This document shows positions 1,715-14,678 of a stretch of DNA of 15,158 nt, piece by piece (position 1 is the first letter of the stretch; every line of letters starts with the position of its first letter). The position numbers were made by a program, and so were the translations under genes. The notes below the pieces were generated by a model. It was not told where the DNA came from. It worked only from the letters and a program-made list of their open reading frames with translations, and did not search any database. Origin of the DNA: a virus; UHGV virus genome UHGV-1773351. One strand, 5' to 3'.

Positions 1715-3079
1715 ATGTCTGCATCCCCTCTTGAATCCATGCCAAATTCCCTTAGTGCAGAACAAGCTGTACTTGGTGGCTTAATGCTTGATAACTGCCG
1801 CTGGGATGAAGTTGCAGATCGTATAGTTGCTGATGATTTTTATACCAGTGCTCATCGTGAAATTTTCAGTGAGATGGAGAGGTTATTAAGTCATGGCAAA
1901 CCGATTGATTTGATAACACTTGCTGAAGCACTTGAACAGAACGGTAAATTAGAACGCGCCGGTGGTTTTGCGTACCTTGCGGAGATGTCAAAGAACACGC
2001 CCAGCGCGGCAAATATTTGTGCTTATGCGGATATCGTTCGTGAACGCGCGGTTGTTCGTGAAATGATTTCCGTCGCAAATGAAATAGCCGAAGCTGGATA
2101 TGCGCAGGATGGCAGGGGCAGCAATGAATTGCTGGATATGGCCGAGCGCCGCGTTTTTGAAATAGCTGAAAAACGACAAAAGAGCGGTAGTGGTCCAAAA
2201 GATATCGCCAGCATTCTCGATGCAACGGTATCTCGCATAGAAGAGTTGTTTCAGCGACCGCATGATGGTGTAACGGGGCTTGATACCGGATTTACCGATC
2301 TCAATAAGAAGACGGCAGGACTTCAGGCGTCCGATCTCATTATTGTCGCCGCCCGCCCATCGATGGGGAAGACTACGTTTGCGATGAATCTCGTCGAAAA
2401 TGCCGCAGTCCGTAACGATAAGCCCGTATTGGTTTTTAGCCTTGAGATGCCGAGCCACCAGCTGATGATGCGCTCACTGGCTTCTCTTGCACGCGTTGAT
2501 CAGACTCGTATTCGAACAGGGCAACTTAACGACGAGGATTGGGCGCGGGTTTCTGGCGCAATGGGGATTCTGTTGGACAAGCAGAATATTTTTATTGATG
2601 ACTCAAGCGCCCTGACACCTACAGAGCTTCGTTCCCGCGCTCGTCGTGTTTATAAAGAAAATGGTGGTTTGAGCATGATTATGATCGACTACCTGCAACT
2701 TATGCGCGTCCCCGAGCTGCAAGATAACCGAACGCTGGAAATTGCCGAGATTTCTCGCTCACTGAAGGCTTTGGCGAAGGAATTACAAGTACCGGTGGTG
2801 GCATTGTCACAACTTAATCGATCGCTTGAACAGCGTGCGGACAAACGACCGGTAAATTCAGATTTACGTGAATCAGGAGCAATTGAGCAGGACGCAGACC
2901 TGATCATGTTTCTGTATCGCGACGAAGTTTATCACCCGGATAGCGAAATGAAGGGCATTGCCGAGGTGATTATCGGTAAGCAACGAAATGGCCCAATTGG
3001 CACGGTGAGATTGGCTTTTAACGGCCAATACTCACGGTTTGATAACTATGCTGGTGCTGACTGGCAAGAGGATTATTAA
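1715..3079 (+). CDS. dnaB: DnaB-family replicative DNA helicase (phage-borne paralog, P1 Ban-like)
   Basis: Near-collinear similarity to E. coli DnaB over the whole length, including the Walker A segment AARPSMGKTTFAMNLVENAA and LRESGAIEQDADLIMFLYRDEVYH. ATG 1715 has GGAG 5 nt upstream; an in-frame GTG at 1709 is the ORF-track start. Confidence 0.93.
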   Translation: MSASPLESMPNSLSAEQAVLGGLMLDNCRWDEVADRIVADDFYTSAHREIFSEMERLLSHGKPIDLITLAEALEQNGKLERAGGFAYLAEMSKNTPSAANICAYADIVRERAVVREMISVANEIAEAGYAQDGRGSNELLDMAERRVFEIAEKRQKSGSGPKDIASILDATVSRIEELFQRPHDGVTGLDTGFTDLNKKTAGLQASDLIIVAARPSMGKTTFAMNLVENAAVRNDKPVLVFSLEMPSHQLMMRSLASLARVDQTRIRTGQLNDEDWARVSGAMGILLDKQNIFIDDSSALTPTELRSRARRVYKENGGLSMIMIDYLQLMRVPELQDNRTLEIAEISRSLKALAKELQVPVVALSQLNRSLEQRADKRPVNSDLRESGAIEQDADLIMFLYRDEVYHPDSEMKGIAEVIIGKQRNGPIGTVRLAFNGQYSRFDNYAGADWQEDY

Positions 3080-4077
3080 TGCAATGGAATGAGGAAAAGC
3101 CGATGAACATCCTGATCATTGGGCGAAAATTTGAAGCTATCAGTGATGTGAAAACATATACGGAAATGTGGGCTTACAACCTGGCCTGCGCCTTTAGTGA
3201 GGCTGGGGTAACATTGCAATACCATCGTCCATATTCCCCCGGCGTCGAAAGCCCGGAGGATTATGTTGAAGCTGTGTTGACTGCTGCGACCGCATGTTCT
3301 GCGAAGGCCATTTTGGCACCAGGATTGAGGTATTTTACTACGGTGCCCAGGGAAATAGGCGTGCAACTGCGTCGTCGATTCACTGGATGGGTAGCCCAGG
3401 TATACGACGGTTCTATGCTGGATTCGGCACCAGTCGATATTACTTTTACTGTCCGCGATGATACCTGGCGGTACCTGGATAATCCAGGCAGGTTAGAGCG
3501 TCATAATCGCTTTAACAAACATGTTGGATGGGCAGCGAATCAGGATCTGTTCCATCTGGAAACCAAAACAGACGATGTTCTGCGTATTTTTGTAGACCAC
3601 GCTGCATTTGATGTTAGTGGGTTTGATCACTCCTTAAGTATCCTTATGAACCTTCAGCGTCTGACCGTTCCGTATGAGGCCAGAACGTTGACCGATGACG
3701 GATTGATTACCATTGATCCGGGGAATATATCGGTAACCCCATACAGACGGACGCCGGTACCAGCAACCGAATTTGCAGCTGAATTGCGTAAGAGTGACGT
3801 GTTTATCGTTACGCATCCCGAAAGCCTTGGATTAACTGTACTTGAGGCGGCAATGTGCGGGGCGTTGGTATTAACGCCTCCCGATTGCCTTCCGCCAGAT
3901 CGCTTGGCTTTGGTGAACCATATGGTTATCAAGTCGCGGATTGATTGGGATGAGGTTATTGCTCGCGTTGATCGCGTGAAAAATGCTGAAAAGGTCCAGT
4001 GTCACACCTGGTCGGCAATTGCGGAAAAGATGCTTGAGACGTTTATCACGCAGAAACCGTCGTGCGGTAACGGATAA
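3079..4077 (+). CDS. GT-B fold (GT4-like) glycosyltransferase-like protein, in the position of P1 dbn
   Basis: ATG 3079 overlaps the helicase stop (TAATG). Alternative ATG 3103 has an ideal GAGGA 7 nt upstream and gives an N-terminus MNILIIG typical of GT-B enzymes. C-terminal motif HPESLGLTVLEAAMCGALVLTP matches the E-x7-E motif of GT4-type transferases. Confidence 0.6.
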   Translation: MQWNEEKPMNILIIGRKFEAISDVKTYTEMWAYNLACAFSEAGVTLQYHRPYSPGVESPEDYVEAVLTAATACSAKAILAPGLRYFTTVPREIGVQLRRRFTGWVAQVYDGSMLDSAPVDITFTVRDDTWRYLDNPGRLERHNRFNKHVGWAANQDLFHLETKTDDVLRIFVDHAAFDVSGFDHSLSILMNLQRLTVPYEARTLTDDGLITIDPGNISVTPYRRTPVPATEFAAELRKSDVFIVTHPESLGLTVLEAAMCGALVLTPPDCLPPDRLALVNHMVIKSRIDWDEVIARVDRVKNAEKVQCHTWSAIAEKMLETFITQKPSCGNG

Positions 4078-8461: not shown

Positions 8462-8839
8462 TTACGCAATGGATAATGTCCCTATTACCTGGCCGTCATA
8501 TTGGAAATGGCGAATCATTTCGCGGATCCAGGTGGCAGGTGGGAGTTTTAATTTTTTGCCAACAGTCATACCCTGAAACTCATCCTCAAGCCCGGCGGCG
8601 AGCGTCACAACCCATCGTAGCTCTGCTATGCCCCACATACGGTAAGCCAGCAAATCCGGGCGATATTGCTCATCGGGAAGAACGTAATAAATCGTCAGAT
8701 TCTTGTCGTTCGATTCACACATAAGCATCACCTCTTTGCGCAGCTCTGCCCTGAGTATTGGATCGGCTATGTTGCGGTCGTCATACCGCGACAGAGGATA
8801 TTGCCGGGTGCTTTGGGTTGTAGTGATTGATGTAGCCAT
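8462..8839 (-). CDS. hypothetical protein (125 aa), first gene of the leftward operon; possible LysM-like fold
   Basis: ORF with ATG at complement of 8837-8839. The segment YYVLPDEQYRPDLLAYRMWGIAELRWVVTLAAGLEDEFQGMTVGKKLKLP loosely resembles LysM / tail-X-type domains. Confidence 0.6.
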   Translation of the reverse strand: MATSITTTQSTRQYPLSRYDDRNIADPILRAELRKEVMLMCESNDKNLTIYYVLPDEQYRPDLLAYRMWGIAELRWVVTLAAGLEDEFQGMTVGKKLKLPPATWIREMIRHFQYDGQVIGTLSIA

Positions 8840-8912
8840 AGTCAGCCTGCCAGAAATATATGATGGTGATTCTACTGCTAGTCATTTGTTGAATATTTAA
8901 CTTAATAAAAGA

Positions 8913-8929
8913 AAATTATTAGTGCAATT
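8913..8929 (-). promoter_or_regulatory. C1-operator-like 17-mer (ATTGCACTAATAATTTT on the minus strand) in the divergent control region
   Basis: 15 of 17 matches to the recalled P1 C1 operator consensus. Lies between the divergent operons starting at 8839 (minus) and 8986 (plus). Confidence 0.4.
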
Positions 8930-8985
8930 CACATTGTGAAATGTATCATTCTGCCATTAAGTAGGTTCTTCACGAGGAAACAAAA

Positions 8986-9231
8986 TTGGCAGAACGTGTT
9001 GATGATGCAGAGCTGAGCATGAATCAGTTAGAAGCTCTCAAAGACATGGCCATCGATAACATCAGAAAGCAGGCACAGGTCGTGAGCCAGGTATTTACAG
9101 GGAAGTGTCGTTACTGCAATGAATCGATTGAATCAGGCATTTATTGTGACGCTGAATGTGCGCAATGGCACAGGGAAGAGCAGGCCGCAAAACAGCGTAA
9201 ATATGGCATGCGACCGGCAGGATTTGACTGA
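8986..9231 (+). CDS. small C4 zinc-ribbon protein (DksA/TraR-like cysteine arrangement) with an N-terminal helical segment
   Basis: TTG start with GAGGA 7 nt upstream; an internal ATG (MNQLEALK) is an alternative. Cysteine motif CRYCNESIESGIYCDAEC. Confidence 0.6.
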   Translation: MAERVDDAELSMNQLEALKDMAIDNIRKQAQVVSQVFTGKCRYCNESIESGIYCDAECAQWHREEQAAKQRKYGMRPAGFD

Positions 9232-9233
9232 TT

Positions 9234-9812
9234 ATGTTGCGCTTTACTGAGGAAGAGTTTCAGGCTTTTAGTGAGCGTCGAAATAAGGGGCGGTCCAGGC
9301 CAAAAACCAAAAAGGATCCATTCTTATCGCTTGCGCCGGTAAAAGAAGTTTCTCCACATGCGAAGGCACTTGCAGCACTGGCAAAGAACCCAGACCTGCG
9401 CGACGGAAATTGCGAGCACTTCGAGCAGGTTTTCATTTTTGATTACTTCGAACGCAAGCACCCTGACATCTATGAGCTGTTGCATGCAACGCCTAACGGA
9501 GGGAAACGTTCAAAAGCAACCGCCGGGAAAATGAAGGCTGAAGGGCAGAAAAAAGGTTATCCGGACATGAGTCTCGATAAAGCATGCGGTATTTATCACG
9601 GCATGCGAATTGAGCTTAAAGAACCAAATGGTAAAGCCCCGACGAAAGAGCAGATCGCCTGGATGCGCAGGCTTAGAGAGGAAGGTTACTACGTCGTTCT
9701 TGCGTATGGTGCAGAACAAGCGATAACCGCCATCCTGGAATACATGAGCCTTAAAAAGGGTGAGGCTATTGAGCATGTATTGAACGGTGACAAGTGTTTG
9801 TACGCTACGTGA
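9234..9812 (+). CDS. VRR-NUC domain nuclease (PD-(D/E)xK superfamily)
   Basis: C-terminal region GYPDMSLDKACGIYHGMRIELKEPNGKAPTKEQIAWMRRLREEGYYVVLAYG matches the VRR-NUC pattern (Asp, then E-x-K, then a helix and beta strand). Start lies 2 nt after the previous stop. Confidence 0.7.
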   Translation: MLRFTEEEFQAFSERRNKGRSRPKTKKDPFLSLAPVKEVSPHAKALAALAKNPDLRDGNCEHFEQVFIFDYFERKHPDIYELLHATPNGGKRSKATAGKMKAEGQKKGYPDMSLDKACGIYHGMRIELKEPNGKAPTKEQIAWMRRLREEGYYVVLAYGAEQAITAILEYMSLKKGEAIEHVLNGDKCLYAT

Positions 9813-9879
9813 AATAATAAATTAATTAGTGCATATGTGTATCTTTGATACAGCGCACATTAACATCGGGAGAATAATC

Positions 9880-10035
9880 GTGTCATCCAAGGCTAATTAT
9901 GAATCGCTGGCATCGATCATGCCGCGTAATGAACAGGAAGCAGATGCTGTAGTGGACCCGGTAATCGCTGAAATGAATGCTCGCCTGGAGGCTGAATTTG
10001 CAGCTGAGAATGAACATACCACCCAGGGCGACTAG
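9880..10035 (+). CDS. small hypothetical protein (about 51 aa from GTG 9880)
   Basis: GGGAGA 7 nt upstream of GTG 9880. The ORF-track start at 9829 is a GTG with no Shine-Dalgarno in an AT-rich spacer. Confidence 0.35.
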   Translation: MSSKANYESLASIMPRNEQEADAVVDPVIAEMNARLEAEFAAENEHTTQGD

Positions 10036-10639
10036 GACTGTTTTTTGTGTCGGTAGCGGTCCGTCACTCACTCGTGAGGACTGTGCTGCTATAGAAAAAA
10101 CTGGCTGTTCAATCATCGCGGTTAACAATTCCTGGCAGATGTTCGATGACATTTATGCCTTATACGCCGGTGATTTGTCATGGTGGAAGCAATACGGATC
10201 CACCATACCGGGAGGGAGATTCCGCAAAGTGACAGCCAACCTGGCGGCGGCGAAATCATTTTCGTTGGAGTACAGGCGATATTGTGGACCGGCTGAAGGG
10301 GTTAATAGCGGCGCGCAGGCTATCAGTCTGGCGGCTGAATCAGGGGCTGAAGTAGTTGTATTAGTCGGCTATGACTGTTCTCTGCAAAACGGCCTTCATT
10401 GGCATGGAGCACACCCTCAAGCACTACGGAATCCAACGCAGGTGTCTATTTCAAAATGGCAACAGCAGTTCCTGGATACCCGCAAAAAACACGCAGATTT
10501 ACATATTTTGAATGCAAGTAGGAGCAGTGCAATTCAATGTTTCCCAAGAATAAATTTAGAGGCAGTGATCGCGTTATTATCGTCGGCAGTGGCCCAAGCG
10601 CCGCAAACTTTGTTGCGCCGCGCGGAGTGCCGATTATAG
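10010..10639 (+). CDS. GT42/DUF115-like (Cst-II sialyltransferase / Maf / MptE-like) putative CMP-sugar transferase, paralog A
   Basis: N-terminal VFCVGSGPSL, then IIAVNNSWQMFDD and NSGAQAISLAAESGAEVVVLVGYD, collinear with Cst-II motifs as I recall them. Start chosen at ATG 10010 to give the same N-terminal length as paralog B; the ORF-track start is 9977. Confidence 0.5.
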   Translation: MNIPPRATRTVFCVGSGPSLTREDCAAIEKTGCSIIAVNNSWQMFDDIYALYAGDLSWWKQYGSTIPGGRFRKVTANLAAAKSFSLEYRRYCGPAEGVNSGAQAISLAAESGAEVVVLVGYDCSLQNGLHWHGAHPQALRNPTQVSISKWQQQFLDTRKKHADLHILNASRSSAIQCFPRINLEAVIALLSSAVAQAPQTLLRRAECRL

Positions 10640-11163
10640 CGGTCAATGGGGCCATAGACTGGCTTAACCGCGCTTCTTATTTTTTCACCCTTGATCCATC
10701 GCCAGACAATATGCGGCGCGTTGGTCGTGGCCGCCGTCGCCGTGGTGTTTGTTATTGCATGGCGCTACCCGATGTTAAAGAACGTGAGGTCAGAGACGGC
10801 GTTCTGTGCTTCCGTCGTGTGGCTGAGCGCGGCACGGAGCCAAAAAATACGAATTCTCCCGAGTGGTGGGCGTGGCGCTGGTCCGCACATTTCGGCCTTT
10901 GCGAAGATGAGAATGAAATTGCCAGCGGCAATAGTGCATATGGTGCTCTGAACCTGGCTTTCCATATCGGATTCAAACATGTCGCCCTGGTGGGCGTTGA
11001 CGCTACACAAGAACCACGCGTTCACTCCGGCGGCACGCCAAAAAATCTAAGTCACCTGCCTTTGTTATTCCAGTCTGCGCGTGAACAGATTGACGTTGTT
11101 TCATGCGGGAAAATGGGAGGTATTCCGCAGATGACTCTTAAAGAATGGCTGAAGAATACATGA
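10537..11163 (+). CDS. GT42/DUF115-like putative CMP-sugar transferase, paralog B
   Basis: [21 protein letters not shown] and [24 protein letters not shown] parallel paralog A. AGGAG lies about 12 nt upstream of the ATG. Overlaps paralog A by 103 nt in another frame. Confidence 0.55.
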
Positions 11164-11837
11164 TGGCACCAACAATTTATCACCGTATCGACGGTACCAA
11201 ATACAGGAATATCTGGGTTGTTGGTGATCTGCATGGTTGCTACAACAGACTGATGTCCGAACTCCATCGTGTGGATTTTGACCCGGCGCAGGATTTACTG
11301 ATATCGGTCGGCGACCTTATCGATCGCGGTACTGAAAATGTCGAATGTCTGGAACTATTGCAGATGCCCTGGTTCAGGGCAGTGATGGGGAACCATGAGC
11401 GGCTGATGATTGATGCGTTAAGTCCAGATGGCAACGTGAATAACTGGCTAATGAATGGCGGACAATGGTTCTTCATGCTGGACACTGATCAGGAAATATT
11501 AGCTAGGGCGCTGGTGGAGCTGGTAAAGCGTCTGCCCTATATCATTGAGTTGAACACCGGGCAAGAAACTATCGTTATAGCCCATGCCGACTATCCGGAT
11601 AATGAATACCAATTCGGTAAGGAGGTGCCGCTTTTCAACGTTGTCTGGGCGCGCGAGCGTATCAGTGATTCGATGGATGATATTGGTGGCGAAATTTCGG
11701 GCGCAGATCGTTTTATCTTTGGTCACACTCCGGTGAAAAGCCCGAAGACATTCTGGAATCAGCATTATATCGATACTGGTGCCGTATTTTGCGGAAACCT
11801 GACATTGATGAAAGTGAAAGGTGATGGTGCAGCATGA
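11145..11837 (+). CDS. Ser/Thr protein phosphatase, lambda PPase (PPP) family
   Basis: Canonical PPP motifs GDLHGCY, GDLIDRG and GNHE, plus near-collinear similarity to lambda phosphatase ([12 protein letters not shown] ... [13 protein letters not shown]). ATG 11160 overlaps the upstream stop in an ATGA arrangement and is an equally plausible start. Confidence 0.85.
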
Positions 11838-12535
11838 AGATTGCTTTAGTTCTTCGCTCTGGTGGTGACTATAACGCTTCCGATGTGCAGTGGCTGGTTA
11901 ATCAACTGCCAAAAGGCTATGAAATTATTTGCCTGACAGACCTGAAGCGTTTACATGTACCTGGCGTCAAAGTTGTCCCATTGATCAACCAGTGGCAAAA
12001 GTGCCGTGGCTGGTGGGCGAAAATCGAGTTGTTCCGACCGGATATAACCGATGATCTGTTCTATCTGGATTTGGACACGGTTATTGCCGGTGATATACGC
12101 CCAATCCTTGAGAATCCACCAACCAGCTTCACCATGCTTAGGGATTTTTACCATCCACAATATCGTGGTAGCGGTGCCCTGTGGATACCAAATAGTGTAA
12201 AAGCGCATATCTGGAGTTCATTCTGGCAAGATCCGGAAGGTTGGATTGCTCGTTGTGTTACTACTGAATGCTGGGGTGATCAGGGGTTTTTGCGGAAGGT
12301 TATGGGTGATGATACACCAGCATTTCAGGATCTGTATCCGGGATGGTTTGTAAGTTACAAGGCCGATGTTGTGGAACCTGGTTCGAAATATGCGAGCGCG
12401 CGTTACTCCAGGGGGAATGGGGCATTACCAAAAGACTGCCGAATAATCTTTTTCCACGGCAAACCGCGACCTCGCGAAGTGTCAGAGGATTGGCTTCCCC
12501 TTATTAGCTCGTTTTTTGAGCGAGAATCAGAATAA
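11834..12535 (+). CDS. hypothetical protein, possible GT-A fold nucleotide-sugar transferase (DxD-like motif)
   Basis: ATG overlaps the phosphatase stop (ATGA). The motif [19 protein letters not shown] resembles the DxD region of GT-A transferases; this is a motif-level guess only. Confidence 0.55.
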
Positions 12536-12536
12536 T

Positions 12537-12553
12537 ATTGCTCTAATAATTCC
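12537..12553 (+). promoter_or_regulatory. C1-operator-like 17-mer (ATTGCTCTAATAATTCC) overlapping a sigma70-like promoter
   Basis: 14 of 17 matches to the recalled consensus. Part of a conserved 30-bp module (ATTGCTCTAATAA-N6-ATTTTTAAAAC) repeated at 14678; within it TTGCTC and TAAAAC are spaced 17 nt apart. Confidence 0.45.
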
Positions 12554-12561
12554 ATATTTTT

Positions 12562-12591
12562 AAAACGTGATGTACACTCATCACGTTTTTT
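12562..12591 (+). terminator. rho-independent terminator after the 11834-12535 gene
   Basis: 11-bp perfect stem AAAACGTGATG/CATCACGTTTT with loop TACACT, followed by a T6 run. Confidence 0.7.
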
Positions 12592-12602
12592 ATTAGAGCA
12601 AT
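12586..12602 (-). promoter_or_regulatory. C1-operator-like 17-mer in inverted orientation (ATTGCTCTAATAAAAAA on the minus strand)
   Basis: 14 of 17 matches. Inverted partner of the 12537-12553 site, giving a roughly 66-bp palindromic unit around the terminator hairpin. Confidence 0.4.
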
Positions 12603-12616
12603 CTATAAGGTGCACT

Positions 12617-12835
12617 ATGTGGCCATTCCGACGGAAATATCACTACTGGCTGATCGCCTTTGTTACGCCGACCGGCGGTATCAGGCATGTCATCACCAGG
12701 TATCGCAACAAGAGACTCTCCTTAGCCAGAATTTTACAGGCTGCCATAGGTGAGGGACTGGATACAAATTGCGTAGTCCTTCCACCTTCATATTTAGGAA
12801 AAATGACCGAAGCACAAGCTAATACGGAACTTTGA
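12617..12835 (+). CDS. small basic hypothetical protein (72 aa), possibly coupled to the downstream gene
   Basis: GGTG 5 nt upstream of the ATG. Its stop TGA lies 1 nt before ATG 12837. Composition is not strongly protein-like, so weak. Confidence 0.3.
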   Translation: MWPFRRKYHYWLIAFVTPTGGIRHVITRYRNKRLSLARILQAAIGEGLDTNCVVLPPSYLGKMTEAQANTEL

Positions 12836-12836
12836 A

Positions 12837-14099
12837 ATGAGCACTTCAGCACAAAACCAATCAATCGAAAATGTATCTATCCCTGACGTCCTTAATGCCG
12901 GTATCCCGGCCATTATCCAGAACATCCGGGCCGCGCAACGCCGCGTTAGTTGTGATGACCTCACAGCACGTTTTTTTGATAATGCGGTTCAGTCAGCGGA
13001 GATGCTTCACGCACAGCTTATTGATGTTTATAACGCAGAAGCTGATAGCCATAACTCCCTGGTAGATGCAGCTGAAAATATGCAGTTGGATCTCGGTCTG
13101 AAGGGTAAAGAAATTGAAGAGCTTCAGCTGCAAATTGAACATTTGAAACGCCAGCAACAGGACGCGATCGACGATGCGACGCATGACGCCAACCAGCGTG
13201 CTGATAATGCCGAACGTATAAGCATTGAGCTGGAAACAAAACTCAATGAAATGACCGCGATGGTTGAACTGCAGAACTCACAGATTTCAACGCTAAAATC
13301 TCAATATAAAGAGATCATGAAACTTGATCCTTTTAACCTTGAGAAACGCTATAACAAAGCTAAAAGCGAGCGACAGGAACTGCGTAAGCAGGTCGCCGAC
13401 CTTAACCAACAGCTCAAAAAAACTATTAAAGATGCAAGCGAAGCGCGCGTGGCATTTGCTAATAAAAAAGCAGAGGTTACCGCGCTGGTTAATGAGAATG
13501 CCAAATTTACGACGCTCAAGAAGGAAATGTATGGCATTACTGAGCGCCGTTTCCCTGCAAGCAAACTTCATCCGACGTTAGGGCAAATCTCCTTCTTCCC
13601 GCGCCTCTTGGCTTATGGGATCTCATCGCCTAAAGAGTTCAATAACGAGCGTCCTTATATCGTGTCTAAGCTGGACTTTGCTTATCAGTTCTGCTGCGAC
13701 ATGGGCTATGCCATTGATATCCGAATCAACGAATGGTTGATGCCAAACTTCCAGCCGTTGGCAATTTTCCGCGAGTTCCAGCCGGAAGGTTGGGTAGAGT
13801 TCTTCCATGAATTGATCTGTAAAGAGATGGAAAGCCGCCGCCCGGAATTGGTCCGTCGAGTTGAGTGGGCGCAAGAGGTTATGTTGGCAGATGCAGAGCT
13901 GCCGTTCGAACCGGAATTCATTGATGATCTGGCAACTAAAGGGTTGCATACCCTGTTTGATGTGGTTACCCGCCGTCATGAGCAGTTGGTTGTCGAATTG
14001 GGTTTAGAGGAAACAGCGGCAAGAAGACTTCTCGATGTTTGCTATGCACGTAGCGATGCATGGGAAAAAGAGAACGGAGGCACTATTTACGTCCGCTGA
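12837..14099 (+). CDS. hypothetical protein (420 aa): N-terminal coiled-coil plus C-terminal globular domain
   Basis: Long ORF. Residues ~60-230 are heptad-like and charged (EELQLQIEHLKRQQQDAIDD ... RQELRKQVADLNQQLKK). C-terminal 190 aa is aromatic/Cys-containing with no motif I recognise. Confidence 0.7.
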   Translation: MSTSAQNQSIENVSIPDVLNAGIPAIIQNIRAAQRRVSCDDLTARFFDNAVQSAEMLHAQLIDVYNAEADSHNSLVDAAENMQLDLGLKGKEIEELQLQIEHLKRQQQDAIDDATHDANQRADNAERISIELETKLNEMTAMVELQNSQISTLKSQYKEIMKLDPFNLEKRYNKAKSERQELRKQVADLNQQLKKTIKDASEARVAFANKKAEVTALVNENAKFTTLKKEMYGITERRFPASKLHPTLGQISFFPRLLAYGISSPKEFNNERPYIVSKLDFAYQFCCDMGYAIDIRINEWLMPNFQPLAIFREFQPEGWVEFFHELICKEMESRRPELVRRVEWAQEVMLADAELPFEPEFIDDLATKGLHTLFDVVTRRHEQLVVELGLEETAARRLLDVCYARSDAWEKENGGTIYVR

Positions 14100-14171: not shown

Positions 14172-14678
14172 TTGAGTATTTTCAATAAACATGCACACCA
14201 GGAACGTCCGTATATCGTCATAGTCGATATTGATGGAACAATATCAAAGGCAACTGAAGACAGACTGCATTTGCTTCCGCCACCAGGTAAAGGTGCATTA
14301 ACAAAGGACTGGAACGAGTTTAATCTCGCCTGTGACACCGATACTCCCATCACTCCAGTTATTGATATGGTGCGCCAGTTATTTAACGTTTACACGGTCT
14401 GGTTTGTAACCGGGCGCTGTGAGATCGCAAGGGATAAAACACGAGCCTGGCTGCGGAAGTACGTAACAAACGGGGCTGAGCCTTTGCTATCTATGCGTCC
14501 TGCCACCGATGACAGAAATGACGGCCCAGCAAAGATTGATCTCCTTAAGAAAATTGGTCTAAGTAAAATCGCGTTCGCGCTGGAAGATAAGATTGAAGTG
14601 GCGCGTGTTTTCAGGAGGCACGGCGTGCTTACGTTAATGGTCAGGGAGTATGAAAATGCGCTTCTTCACCAACAATAA
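14172..14678 (+). CDS. HAD-superfamily phosphatase (DxDGT motif; resembles polynucleotide 3'-phosphatase / nucleotidase-type domains)
   Basis: TTG start with a strong GAGGAGG 5 nt upstream. Motif I IVIVDIDGT and motif II-like WFVTGRCE. Confidence 0.7.
   Translation: MSIFNKHAHQERPYIVIVDIDGTISKATEDRLHLLPPPGKGALTKDWNEFNLACDTDTPITPVIDMVRQLFNVYTVWFVTGRCEIARDKTRAWLRKYVTNGAEPLLSMRPATDDRNDGPAKIDLLKKIGLSKIAFALEDKIEVARVFRRHGVLTLMVREYENALLHQQ

Follow-up and report, generated by a model that had tools for sequence, protein, structure and literature searches.

A conserved cassette of DUF115-like and GT8-like transferase genes in phage P1 and other Gram-negative phages, with a possible role in virion glycosylation

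Bacteriophage P1, whose receptor is the LPS core, is among the phages most widely used in genetics, yet the function of roughly one in five of its genes has not been established. Among the closest described systems to the locus reported here are the glycosylation genes of mycobacteriophages (Freeman et al. 2023, as summarised in PMC11600133 and PMC11256854) and the LPS core enzymes of Escherichia coli. According to PMC11600133, mycobacteriophages of cluster O have a tandem array of three glycosyltransferase genes and an O-methyltransferase gene, whose products modify capsid and tail-tube proteins; PMC11256854 and PMC11600133 report that such virion glycans change antibody recognition. In E. 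coli, WaaZ is the KdoIII transferase of the LPS core and its induction accompanies truncation of the outer core (PMC6358824); NCBIfam TIGR04437 describes WaaZ in the same way.

The window analysed here is a stretch of 15,158 nucleotides from UHGV virus genome UHGV-1773351. It is 98% identical to phage P1 and belongs to a P1-type phage. An initial annotation had marked four genes at 10010-12535 as two DUF115-type paralogues, a lambda-type phosphatase and a GT-A enzyme with a DxD motif. This cluster is real, and its members are P1 pmgO, pmgP, ppp and pmgQ, known in P7 as hdmB, hdmC, ppp and hdmD. Its author knew of no description of such a module in P1-type phages, but the genes were already named in P1 and P7 and two bear RefSeq labels as glycosyltransferases (pmgO, 'alpha-2,3-sialyltransferase'; pmgQ, 'glycosyltransferase'). 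No functional study turned up in literature searches on pmgO/P/Q, on DUF115 in phages and on Maf-type glycosylation of capsids. The features of the locus are as follows.

3079..4077, plus strand: dbn (P7 glt), GT4-like GT-B glycosyltransferase (weak Pfam Glycos_transf_1 matches)
8912..8928, minus strand: C1 repressor operator (P1 O26/Op82) in a divergent promoter region; consensus match with 2 mismatches
8986..9231, plus strand: pmgL, DksA-like zinc-finger protein (phrog_54; P1 annotation)
9234..9812, plus strand: pmgM, VRR-NUC nuclease-like (Pfam VRR_NUC, 21.2 bits; phrog_2363, phrog_5702)
9880..10035, plus strand: pmgN, small protein (P1 annotation; phrog_2350)
9977..10639, plus strand: pmgO (P7 hdmB), DUF115/MptE-like, predicted Maf/CstI-like transferase
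10537..11163, plus strand, -1 frame: pmgP (P7 hdmC), diverged DUF115 paralogue of pmgO
11145..11837, plus strand: ppp, lambda-type Ser/Thr phosphatase, a metallophosphoesterase (Pfam Metallophos; 1G5B)
11834..12535, plus strand: pmgQ (P7 hdmD), GT8-like GT-A glycosyltransferase (D79xD81, G148-D-Q150, H208-G-x-P-R-P)
12537..12553, plus strand: C1 operator (P1 OpmgRa), one base past the pmgQ stop codon

The C1 operator consensus is matched 4 times in the window, where chance alone predicts 0.07. An annotated late promoter, LPpmgL, lies at about 8879-8897, just upstream of the operator at 8912..8928, and this divergent promoter region is 98% identical to annotated P1. The operon begins with pmgL, followed by pmgM, both outside the cassette described below; pmgN, directly 5' of pmgO and overlapping it, occurs in P1-type loci only. 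The OpmgRa operator signals where the following transcription unit, that of pmgR and pmgS, starts. The flanking C1 operators together with the annotated late promoter indicate that the pmg operon is expressed in lytic growth. A scan of positions 8800-12900 for promoter and terminator consensus sequences found sites no commoner than chance. Position between the tail genes and pmgR/pmgS, in a late-promoter operon, underlies the P1 and P7 annotations 'putative morphogenetic function' and 'head morphogenesis', under which the products would be non-enzymatic helpers. We regard this as very improbable, since the annotation is based on position only, infectious particles still form under knockouts (PMC9024508) and CRISPRi, and the DUF115 and GT8 motifs, invariant across distant homologues, point to enzymes. 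A table in the CRISPRi paper, citing PMC9024508, lists pmgO, pmgP, ppp, pmgQ and dbn as non-essential.

In line with the first description, PmgO and PmgP are paralogues that have diverged from each other and that adopt a DUF115/MptE-like fold. Their relationship was established by profile comparison with the fusion protein left out of the alignment; BLASTP of one against the other aligns the N-terminal motif alone (E 0.003). Both share the Rossmann-like fold common to Maf, CstI and MptE, and the suggested structural comparison with Maf and sialyltransferases bore out the assignment, the flagellin glycosyltransferase Maf being the best match, with the longest alignment as well (163 residues), ahead of an archaeal pyrophosphokinase and of CstI, a sialyltransferase. 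The proposed HMM check gave a divided answer: PmgO (23.4 bits) and PmgP (20.9 bits) fall below the Pfam PF01973 gathering score of 34.6 bits, whereas many homologues of each carry precomputed PF01973 matches and a natural PmgO::PmgP fusion, P0171, scores 44.6 bits. The GNGPS-type N-terminal motif and the SG...A..G....L.G.D motif are invariant or nearly so in both families, whose two sialyltransferase motifs align to CstII, but at an E value of about 0.14. PmgO further has the conserved motif GYDCSxxxGxHWHGxH, and its H141 and H143, C-terminal to GYD, are invariant.

The DUF115 proteins might instead be pyrophosphokinases, of the MptE or thiamine pyrophosphokinase type, or other metabolite enzymes, and the cassette would then make or consume a soluble glycoside, for instance one that interferes with host metabolism or immune signalling. 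We consider such a small-molecule or nucleotide pathway decidedly unlikely: the glycosyltransferase Maf outranks the pyrophosphokinase in structure, the sialyltransferase motifs align to CstII, and GT8 and sugar O-methyltransferase genes are the constant partners of the DUF115 genes, by coupling or by fusion, as in glycan assembly. The structural-gene context of the cassette would also be left unexplained.

The pmgP frame is always -1 relative to pmgO, with an overlap of 103 nt in the window and 40-109 nt among relatives. A canonical heptamer, A_AAT_TTA, lies in the pmgO frame at 10552-10558 in the window. A programmed -1 frameshift yielding a PmgO-PmgP fusion is not supported, the heptamer being missing in phiNP and several relatives; by our own estimate, it would occur by chance in about 13% of such overlaps.

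PmgQ, first described as a GT-A protein with a DxD motif, indeed has a GT-A fold and can be placed more precisely as GT8-like, as its fold is nearest to GT8 structures and its DxD, DQ and C-terminal His motifs are all intact. In the PmgQ family D79, D81 and D149 never vary, and conservation is 90% or higher at Q150, H208 and P213. All three motifs align with those of Skp1 GalT, GlyE and glycogenin (E 3.7e-8 to 1.2e-4), to which the PmgQ sequence is closer than to the LPS enzyme LgtC. A Pfam scan at E values up to 1 matched no family, PF01501 Glyco_transf_8 included, while WaaJ and WaaO scored 215-260 bits with the same library; PmgQ was accordingly rejected as a direct member of the Pfam GT8 family.

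The limits first given to the module are too narrow, as it probably extends to dbn. Although dbn sits 6 kb from the pmgO-pmgQ cluster, the cassette of EP_H11 (gene order DUF115, DUF115, Dbn-like, PmgQ-like) holds a Dbn homologue with 48% identity (E 6e-107), a Dbn-like gene is also found within the cassette of phage IME392, and the P1-like contig L172 has one 5 kb 3' of pmgQ. Dbn is therefore probably the fourth enzyme of the pmgO/pmgP/pmgQ system. The phosphatase, in turn, was correctly recognized but does not belong to the module. Ppp is an orthologue of lambda phosphatase (PF00149, 61.4 bits against a cut-off of 21.5; 1G5B, E 2.3e-94 over residues 11-229; phrog_246, NinI-like). Its gene is a lineage-specific insertion in the pmgP/pmgQ interval of some P1-like loci only, missing from phiNP, from several P1-like contigs of 90-100 kb and from all distant cassettes, and because of this distribution we reject it as a functional part; ppp is a passenger gene in the cassette.

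Many phages and prophages share a conserved cassette made up of two DUF115 paralogues and a PmgQ-like GT8 gene, with or without a sugar O-methyltransferase gene. The P1 genes themselves were known; the cassette of a DUF115 pair with GT8 in Gram-negative phages is new here, and it supports the idea of a glycosylation module as a phage-encoded set of transferase-like genes. Sampling from the PmgQ side found DUF115 partners in 34 of 72 loci, nearly always nearby on the same strand and mostly just upstream. From the PmgP side, 24 of 25 viral contigs other than P1 have a PmgQ-like gene in the same gene run, and the 25th, L173, stops short of its position. These contigs were obtained from IMG/VR with a distant first sequence as query. 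Natural fusions join the same functions in several ways (DUF115::DUF115, DUF115::GT8, GT8::DUF115, GT8::DUF115::FkbM, MT24::DUF115 and TylF-like MT::GT8). Firmicutes and Actinobacteria are absent from the sources of the 71 genome loci.

Hallmark head or tail genes could be recognised on the same strand in 22 genome loci, and every one of these contains the DUF115 and GT8 pair. The pair is inside or adjoining the head-gene block in some twelve of the 22 and also in the viral contigs L161, L163, L164, L166, L173 and L179. The usual site is 3' of the major capsid gene, often before the head-tail connector gene, which in three loci overlaps the end of the PmgQ-like ORF (ORFs from a crude ORF caller). 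This context suggests co-expression with head proteins and not an autonomous moron. In the jumbo phage XacN1 a full cassette lies directly 5' of ORF372, which encodes a long Pro/Thr-rich, mucin-like linker, and upstream of other large genes adjoining a tail-sheath gene; XacN1 virions have at least two Schiff-positive glycoprotein bands. A comparison of capsid C-termini beside the cassette found no common Ser/Thr-rich extension. Lone PmgQ-like genes occur at sites of the lysogenic-conversion type, for example in phage Chlobot beside int and tail-fibre genes, which suggests that some family members target host structures.

Phage DNA, one of the acceptors first proposed for the module, is an unlikely target. 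Glycosylation of DNA, which might protect against restriction, is known from other phages; lytic expression of the genes would suit it, and DNA would be a universal acceptor. To our knowledge, though, no known DNA glycosyltransferase belongs to GT8 or DUF115, and routine restriction and sequencing show nothing unusual about P1 DNA. None of the window ORFs scanned, the larger ones outside the tail genes, matched the Pfam hydroxymethylase or TET-like families that would supply an acceptor base, and elsewhere the cassette sits among head genes, not replication genes. Moreover, the 24 single-gene pmg/upf knockouts free of a plaquing defect have unchanged antirestriction (PMC9024508). Together these observations leave DNA glycosylation with hardly any likelihood.

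Our preferred reading, which we put forward tentatively, is that pmgO, pmgP and pmgQ, probably with dbn, encode a pathway glycosylating the phage's own virion proteins. The frequent location of the cassette beside the capsid gene makes virion proteins the probable recipients of the sugars, and dispensability for plaque formation fits a surface decoration. In P1 itself pmgO-pmgQ lie away from the capsid gene, and the argument from context comes from distantly related phages. The literature reports no P1 virion glycan, and the published virion LC-MS/MS was not aimed at glycans.

What the cassette uses as donors and acceptor, and what benefit it brings, we infer. The pathway would be soluble and cytoplasmic, would assemble its glycan during P1 lytic growth and would have as its likeliest substrate at least one virion protein (capsid, decoration or tail). 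PmgO and PmgP would act as a pair, possibly a heterodimer, and may move an acidic ulosonic sugar off a CMP-activated donor; CMP-Kdo is the only such donor that we know of in E. coli K-12. The earlier proposal of CMP-Kdo has a precedent in E. coli WaaZ, a DUF115-like KdoIII transferase; for the phage enzymes this donor is a prediction. Hexoses from UDP-sugars would be added by the GT8-like PmgQ and the GT4-like Dbn, and in many related phages an FkbM/TylF-type enzyme may O-methylate the glycan. The particle would end up coated with short O-linked glycans, like those of mycobacteriophages. In its most extended form the proposal covers P1 together with hundreds of other tailed phages that infect Gram-negative hosts. 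Their capsids or other virion proteins would be coated with short, often O-methylated O-glycans containing Kdo drawn from the CMP-Kdo pool of the host, built by a hitherto unrecognised cassette of a heterodimeric Maf/WaaZ-like DUF115 pair and a GT8-like enzyme. In this form the proposal is speculative and unlikely.

The main rival reading is remodelling of the host LPS inner core. PmgO and PmgP could work as WaaZ does and place additional Kdo on the universally conserved Kdo2-lipid A inner core, with PmgQ and Dbn attaching hexoses in the manner of WaaO/WaaJ and WaaG, so that LPS made in infection would be altered or truncated. This could hide the P1 receptor on infected cells as well as on debris and vesicles, or could make the envelope weaker. 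WaaZ is itself DUF115-like (PF01973, 29.6 bits, E 6.9e-7), aligns weakly with the PmgP profile (hhalign 52%; 29% with PmgO), and the PmgO::PmgP fusion has a faint precomputed match to PF27901 'WaaZ_KDO_III'. The waa locus combines WaaZ with WaaO/WaaJ, GT8 by Pfam, and WaaG/WaaB, which we take to be GT4, the same classes as PmgO/PmgP, PmgQ and Dbn. Kdo2-lipid A would be a universal acceptor, as would suit a cassette kept across very different Gram-negative hosts, and both the outer-core truncation on waaZ induction and the lone PmgQ-like genes at moron sites agree with such remodelling. Against it, cassettes near capsid and connector genes in late structural operons would act too late to replace surface LPS, and the C1 operators keep the P1 operon off in lysogens, where receptor masking would pay. 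The NCBIfam WaaZ models TIGR04437 and NF007333 match neither PmgO nor PmgP at E values up to 0.01, with WaaZ itself at 479-554 bits, for which reason direct membership of the WaaZ family was rejected; nor does Glyco_transf_8 match the P1 proteins, and PmgQ stands nearer to glycogenin, GlyE and Skp1-GalT than to LgtC. On balance we hold LPS remodelling to be possible but somewhat unlikely.

If the P1 particle is glycosylated, virion glycosylation would extend from mycobacteriophages to Gram-negative phages with a different enzyme set, and a genetically tractable model would be at hand because single knockouts already exist. A Kdo-glycan coat, if true, would be the first virion glycosylation system of a model coliphage, and Kdo would for the first time be seen linked to protein; we conjecture that glycan coats on other phages might affect particle behaviour in phage therapy. 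If LPS is the target, the cassette would be a new phage route to rewriting the conserved inner core during infection. With either target, the conserved DUF115 pairing and its link to WaaZ offer an experimental entry to a transferase family that is still little understood.

The present cassette and the mycobacteriophage genes of clusters O and F1 (PMC11600133 and PMC11256854) both combine tandem glycosyltransferases with an O-methyltransferase, the mycobacteriophage enzymes being cytoplasmic proteins that the phage can do without and that glycosylate capsid and tail-tube proteins. In contrast, the enzymes here are two DUF115/Maf-like and one GT8-like, with or without a GT4-like one, and the hosts are Gram-negative; glycans are reported for the mycobacteriophages and are a prediction for P1 and its close relatives. 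Relative to Maf, PmgO and PmgP are minimal (~200 aa) and lack its flanking domains; relative to Maf and CstI/CstII they score under the PF01973 cut-off and form an obligate paralogue pair, and the DCSxxxGxHWHGxH motif is PmgO's own. With 233 aa, PmgQ is shorter than the GT8 enzymes glycogenin, GlyE and Skp1 alpha-galactosyltransferase, to which it is 13-16% identical, and it lies outside PF01501. Ppp aligns over its full length with lambda Ser/Thr phosphatase (NinI; PDB 1G5B), at 64% identity according to the P1 record, but its gene is non-essential and lies inside a glycosyltransferase operon instead of the nin region. The E. coli LPS core enzymes WaaZ, WaaO/WaaJ (GT8) and WaaG (GT4) represent the same three classes, and WaaZ is a precedent for a DUF115-like enzyme in E. 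coli able to use CMP-Kdo; the P1 similarity to them is at superfamily level only (hhalign 29-52%), and the P1 genes differ in being phage-borne and expressed with virion genes.

Bases 9000-13000 of the window share 98.0-98.8% identity with P1, RCS47, P7 and SJ46, and the P1 gene order is kept: ban and dbn are followed by the minus-strand tail and baseplate genes 5, 6, 24, 7, 25 and 26, and then by pmgL, pmgM, pmgN, pmgO, pmgP, ppp, pmgQ, pmgR, pmgS and pap. The genes considered as candidate members of a glycosylation system are:

3079-4077, dbn (P7 'Glt'), a GT4-like GT-B protein by Pfam
9977-10639, pmgO (P7 hdmB)
10537-11163, pmgP (P7 hdmC)
11145-11837, ppp (also ppp in P7)
11834-12535, pmgQ (P7 hdmD)

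The initial annotation knew of no description of such a module in P1-type phages; its genes are named P1/P7 genes with existing RefSeq labels. Position alone underlies the labels first given to them, 'putative morphogenetic function' and 'head morphogenesis', and RefSeq, after PHROGs, lists pmgO as 'alpha-2,3-sialyltransferase' and pmgQ as 'glycosyltransferase'. The name 'norphogenetic protein', misspelt in the pmgM note of the P1 record, is now a family name for PmgP/PmgO homologues across NCBI and UniRef. The genes, their dispensability and their database labels are already known; a literature search returned no functional paper on pmgO, pmgP or pmgQ, and none describing a phage cassette of DUF115 and GT8 genes. 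What appears to be new is the recognition of pmgO, pmgP and pmgQ as a conserved cassette with natural fusions, its position beside capsid genes, the removal of ppp from and inclusion of dbn in the system, and the link to WaaZ. Position 10010, first taken as the start of pmgO, is an in-frame ATG but encodes Met12 of the gene annotated from 9977; PmgO residues 1-15 are disordered in the structure model, and homologues start near Met12. Elsewhere in the window, a cargo difference from reference P1 was seen: tciA, tciB and tciC (TerB-like) are replaced by a lipoprotein of 275 aa that carries an SPFH/Band 7 domain (504-1331; Pfam 107.6 bits), then a tRNA with anticodon CAT (1359-1434), annotated in P1 as tRNA-Ile2.

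Every motif initially named is present in the proteins. Pfam matched PmgO and PmgP to PF01973 (MptE-like/DUF115), as had been expected, but below threshold, and gave nothing for PmgQ. The two DUF115 proteins, proposed earlier as paralogues, can be taken as true paralogues from their profile-profile comparison (97.7% probability, E 2.5e-12, 163 columns), computed without the fusion protein, which inflates the score. A profile of 46 PmgQ homologues matches Skp1 GalT, GlyE and glycogenin by sequence (E 3.7e-8 to 1.2e-4), and the nearly invariant DxD, GDQ and His-...-K/R-P motifs align to those of these GT8 enzymes. By fold alone, a pyrophosphokinase or small-molecule role could also be proposed, which we consider improbable. 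The pmgP gene begins 103 nt within pmgO in the -1 frame (overlap 10537-10639), and such overlaps of 40-109 nt are kept in enterobacterial relatives. A programmed frameshift at the canonical heptamer A_AAT_TTA (10552-10558, pmgO frame), which would join PmgO to PmgP as in the fusion protein P0171, was rejected because relatives do not conserve this heptamer.

A PmgQ-profile scan limited to a single genome for each species yielded 71 loci; they belong to Proteobacteria, Planctomycetes, Cytophagales and further lineages, and Firmicutes and Actinobacteria are not represented. With the lambdoid Citrobacter phage phiNP added, 72 loci were searched with iterated HMMs, and 34 proved to have a DUF115 partner, nearly always close by on the same strand and usually just upstream. 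In phiNP the pmgO, pmgP and pmgQ homologues are contiguous, with lysis genes on one side and a minor tail protein gene, then terminase genes, on the other. The PmgP-type family comprises 610 clusters (50% identity; E up to 1e-3). An independent sample of IMG/VR, drawn with PmgP instead, yielded 25 non-P1 contigs. A PmgQ-like gene belongs to the same gene run in 24, and the remaining one (L173) stops short of where it would lie; two DUF115 paralogues are present in most contigs, and several also have an FkbM-type methyltransferase. An FkbM or Methyltransf_24 gene lies on the same strand in 17 genome loci, mostly adjoining the PmgQ-like gene.

Natural fusions of cassette domains (P-numbers denote homologous proteins)
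P0171, DUF115::DUF115
P0300 and P0366, DUF115::GT8
P0381, GT8::DUF115
P0349, GT8::DUF115::FkbM
P0386, Methyltransf_24::DUF115
XacN1 ORF373, TylF-like sugar O-methyltransferase::GT8

Because these fusions join the domain types, they are strong evidence that the components would share one pathway building a glycan, often methylated.

The phosphatase, initially counted as a cassette member, is indeed lambda-type (Pfam Metallophos; full-length match to 1G5B, E 2.3e-94). Its occurrence between the DUF115 and GT8 genes is confined to P1-type loci and a single related lineage (L171, L175, L177, L178), and it is absent from the P1-like 90-100 kb contigs L172, L176, L180 and L181, from phiNP and from all distant cassettes; this restricted distribution marks ppp as a presumed passenger gene. 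In phages EP_H11 and IME392 the cassette itself includes a Dbn homologue (48% identity, E 6e-107): two DUF115 genes come first, then the Dbn-like and the PmgQ-like gene, and the reading frames overlap. Contig L172 has a Dbn-like gene 5 kb after pmgQ; dbn is thus probably part of the system. A GT2-like gene occurs within the cassette of L183. Such variability in gene content is usual in glycan gene clusters.

The DUF115 and GT8 pair is present in all 22 genome loci with recognisable same-strand head/tail hallmark genes. About a dozen share the order terminase, portal, protease, major capsid protein, a small protein in some, DUF115 gene(s), optional methyltransferase, GT8, head-tail connector, tail tube and tape measure, and viral contigs L161, L163, L164 and L166 keep this terminase-to-tape-measure order with the cassette after the major capsid protein; in L173 and L179 it follows portal and connector genes instead. 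In three loci (L016, L017 and L074) the PmgQ-like ORF, as delimited by a crude ORF caller, overlaps at its end with the connector gene. This layout is not that of an autonomous moron. In ten prophages or contigs the cassette is separated from the major capsid gene by a gene for a small protein of 81-98 aa (phrog_2616, function unknown), whose conserved basic tail includes SSASPxxQAS[PR]Q[KT]T; purely speculatively, it could be a glycan acceptor or decoration protein.

Small protein, by locus or contig (others not listed)
L017:6249-6494
L016:7275-7544
L010:7308-7571
L009:6697-6948
L074:6163-6447
L161:5061-5357

In jumbo phage XacN1 (L239) the cassette (ORF375, 374, 373) stands directly ahead of ORF372, past which lie large genes up to a tail-sheath stabiliser. 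ORF372 (L239 6662-9928) combines a PKD-like domain with a long, mucin-like linker rich in Pro, Thr and Ser, and is a plausible O-glycosylation substrate; XacN1 virions give at least two Schiff-positive glycoprotein bands, in which the proteins were not identified. Lone PmgQ-like genes, which may have a different, host-directed target, occur without a DUF115 partner at a moron-type site between int and tail-fibre genes in phage Chlobot (L075 6001-6720), and in non-phage chromosomal neighbourhoods of Rhizobium (L022-L032), there close to a two-component system and a repeat protein that is very large (>1,300 aa) and rich in Thr, Ser and Asp.

Four C1 operator matches were found in the window against 0.07 expected by chance, and those at 8912-8928 and 12537-12553 flank the pmgL-to-pmgQ operon; the operator annotated in P1 ahead of pmgN has more than 3 mismatches here. 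The region ahead of pmgL is 98% identical to annotated P1, where the late promoter LPpmgL is placed. By P1 annotation, the pmgL-pmgQ genes would be off in the lysogen and on in lytic growth. In the same region, pmgL (8986-9231) is DksA-like, pmgM (9234-9812) VRR-NUC-like, and Pap (14172-14678) has a PNKP-type HAD phosphatase domain (Pfam 46.8 bits), not that of a generic acid phosphatase; none of the three co-occurs with the cassette in the other genomes compared. Published data rate pmgN (9880-10035) essential by CRISPRi (EOP 1.4e-2) and non-essential by knockout, a discrepancy that could come from polarity on the operon downstream or from off-target action there. The CRISPRi study rates pmgO, pmgP, ppp, pmgQ and dbn non-essential and cites single-gene knockouts for each. 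Glycosylation of phage DNA, one of the targets initially suggested, is highly unlikely.

We tentatively class the predicted function of the cassette under phage-encoded glycosylation of virion components. Cytoplasmic O-glycosylation of virion proteins is the best-supported specific reading, held tentatively: under it, the two DUF115 proteins would be ulosonic acid transferases, PmgQ and Dbn would attach hexoses, and the methyltransferases of other phages would serve to cap their glycan. E. coli K-12 is not known to make a CMP-ulosonic sugar other than CMP-Kdo, and for this reason, and because WaaZ is DUF115-like (PF01973, 29.6 bits), CMP-Kdo is the proposed donor. WaaZ, described as a KdoIII transferase (PMC6358824; also NCBIfam), gives the earlier suggestion of this donor a precedent. 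The late head-gene context in distant phages, predicted repression of the P1 cassette in lysogens, failure of the P1 proteins against WaaZ and Pfam GT8 models, and the closer sequence affinity of PmgQ to enzymes extending protein-linked glycans all place second, as possible but rather doubtful, a rewriting of the universal Kdo2-lipid A inner core of host LPS. That the phage set could do so follows from the make-up of the host's LPS core pathway, in which WaaZ works beside WaaO and WaaJ, both GT8, and WaaG and WaaB, both GT4. For glycosylation of virion proteins, the closest functional precedent is found in cluster O mycobacteriophages, where three glycosyltransferase genes in tandem, together with one for an O-methyltransferase, are responsible for modifying capsid and tail-tube proteins (PMC11600133).
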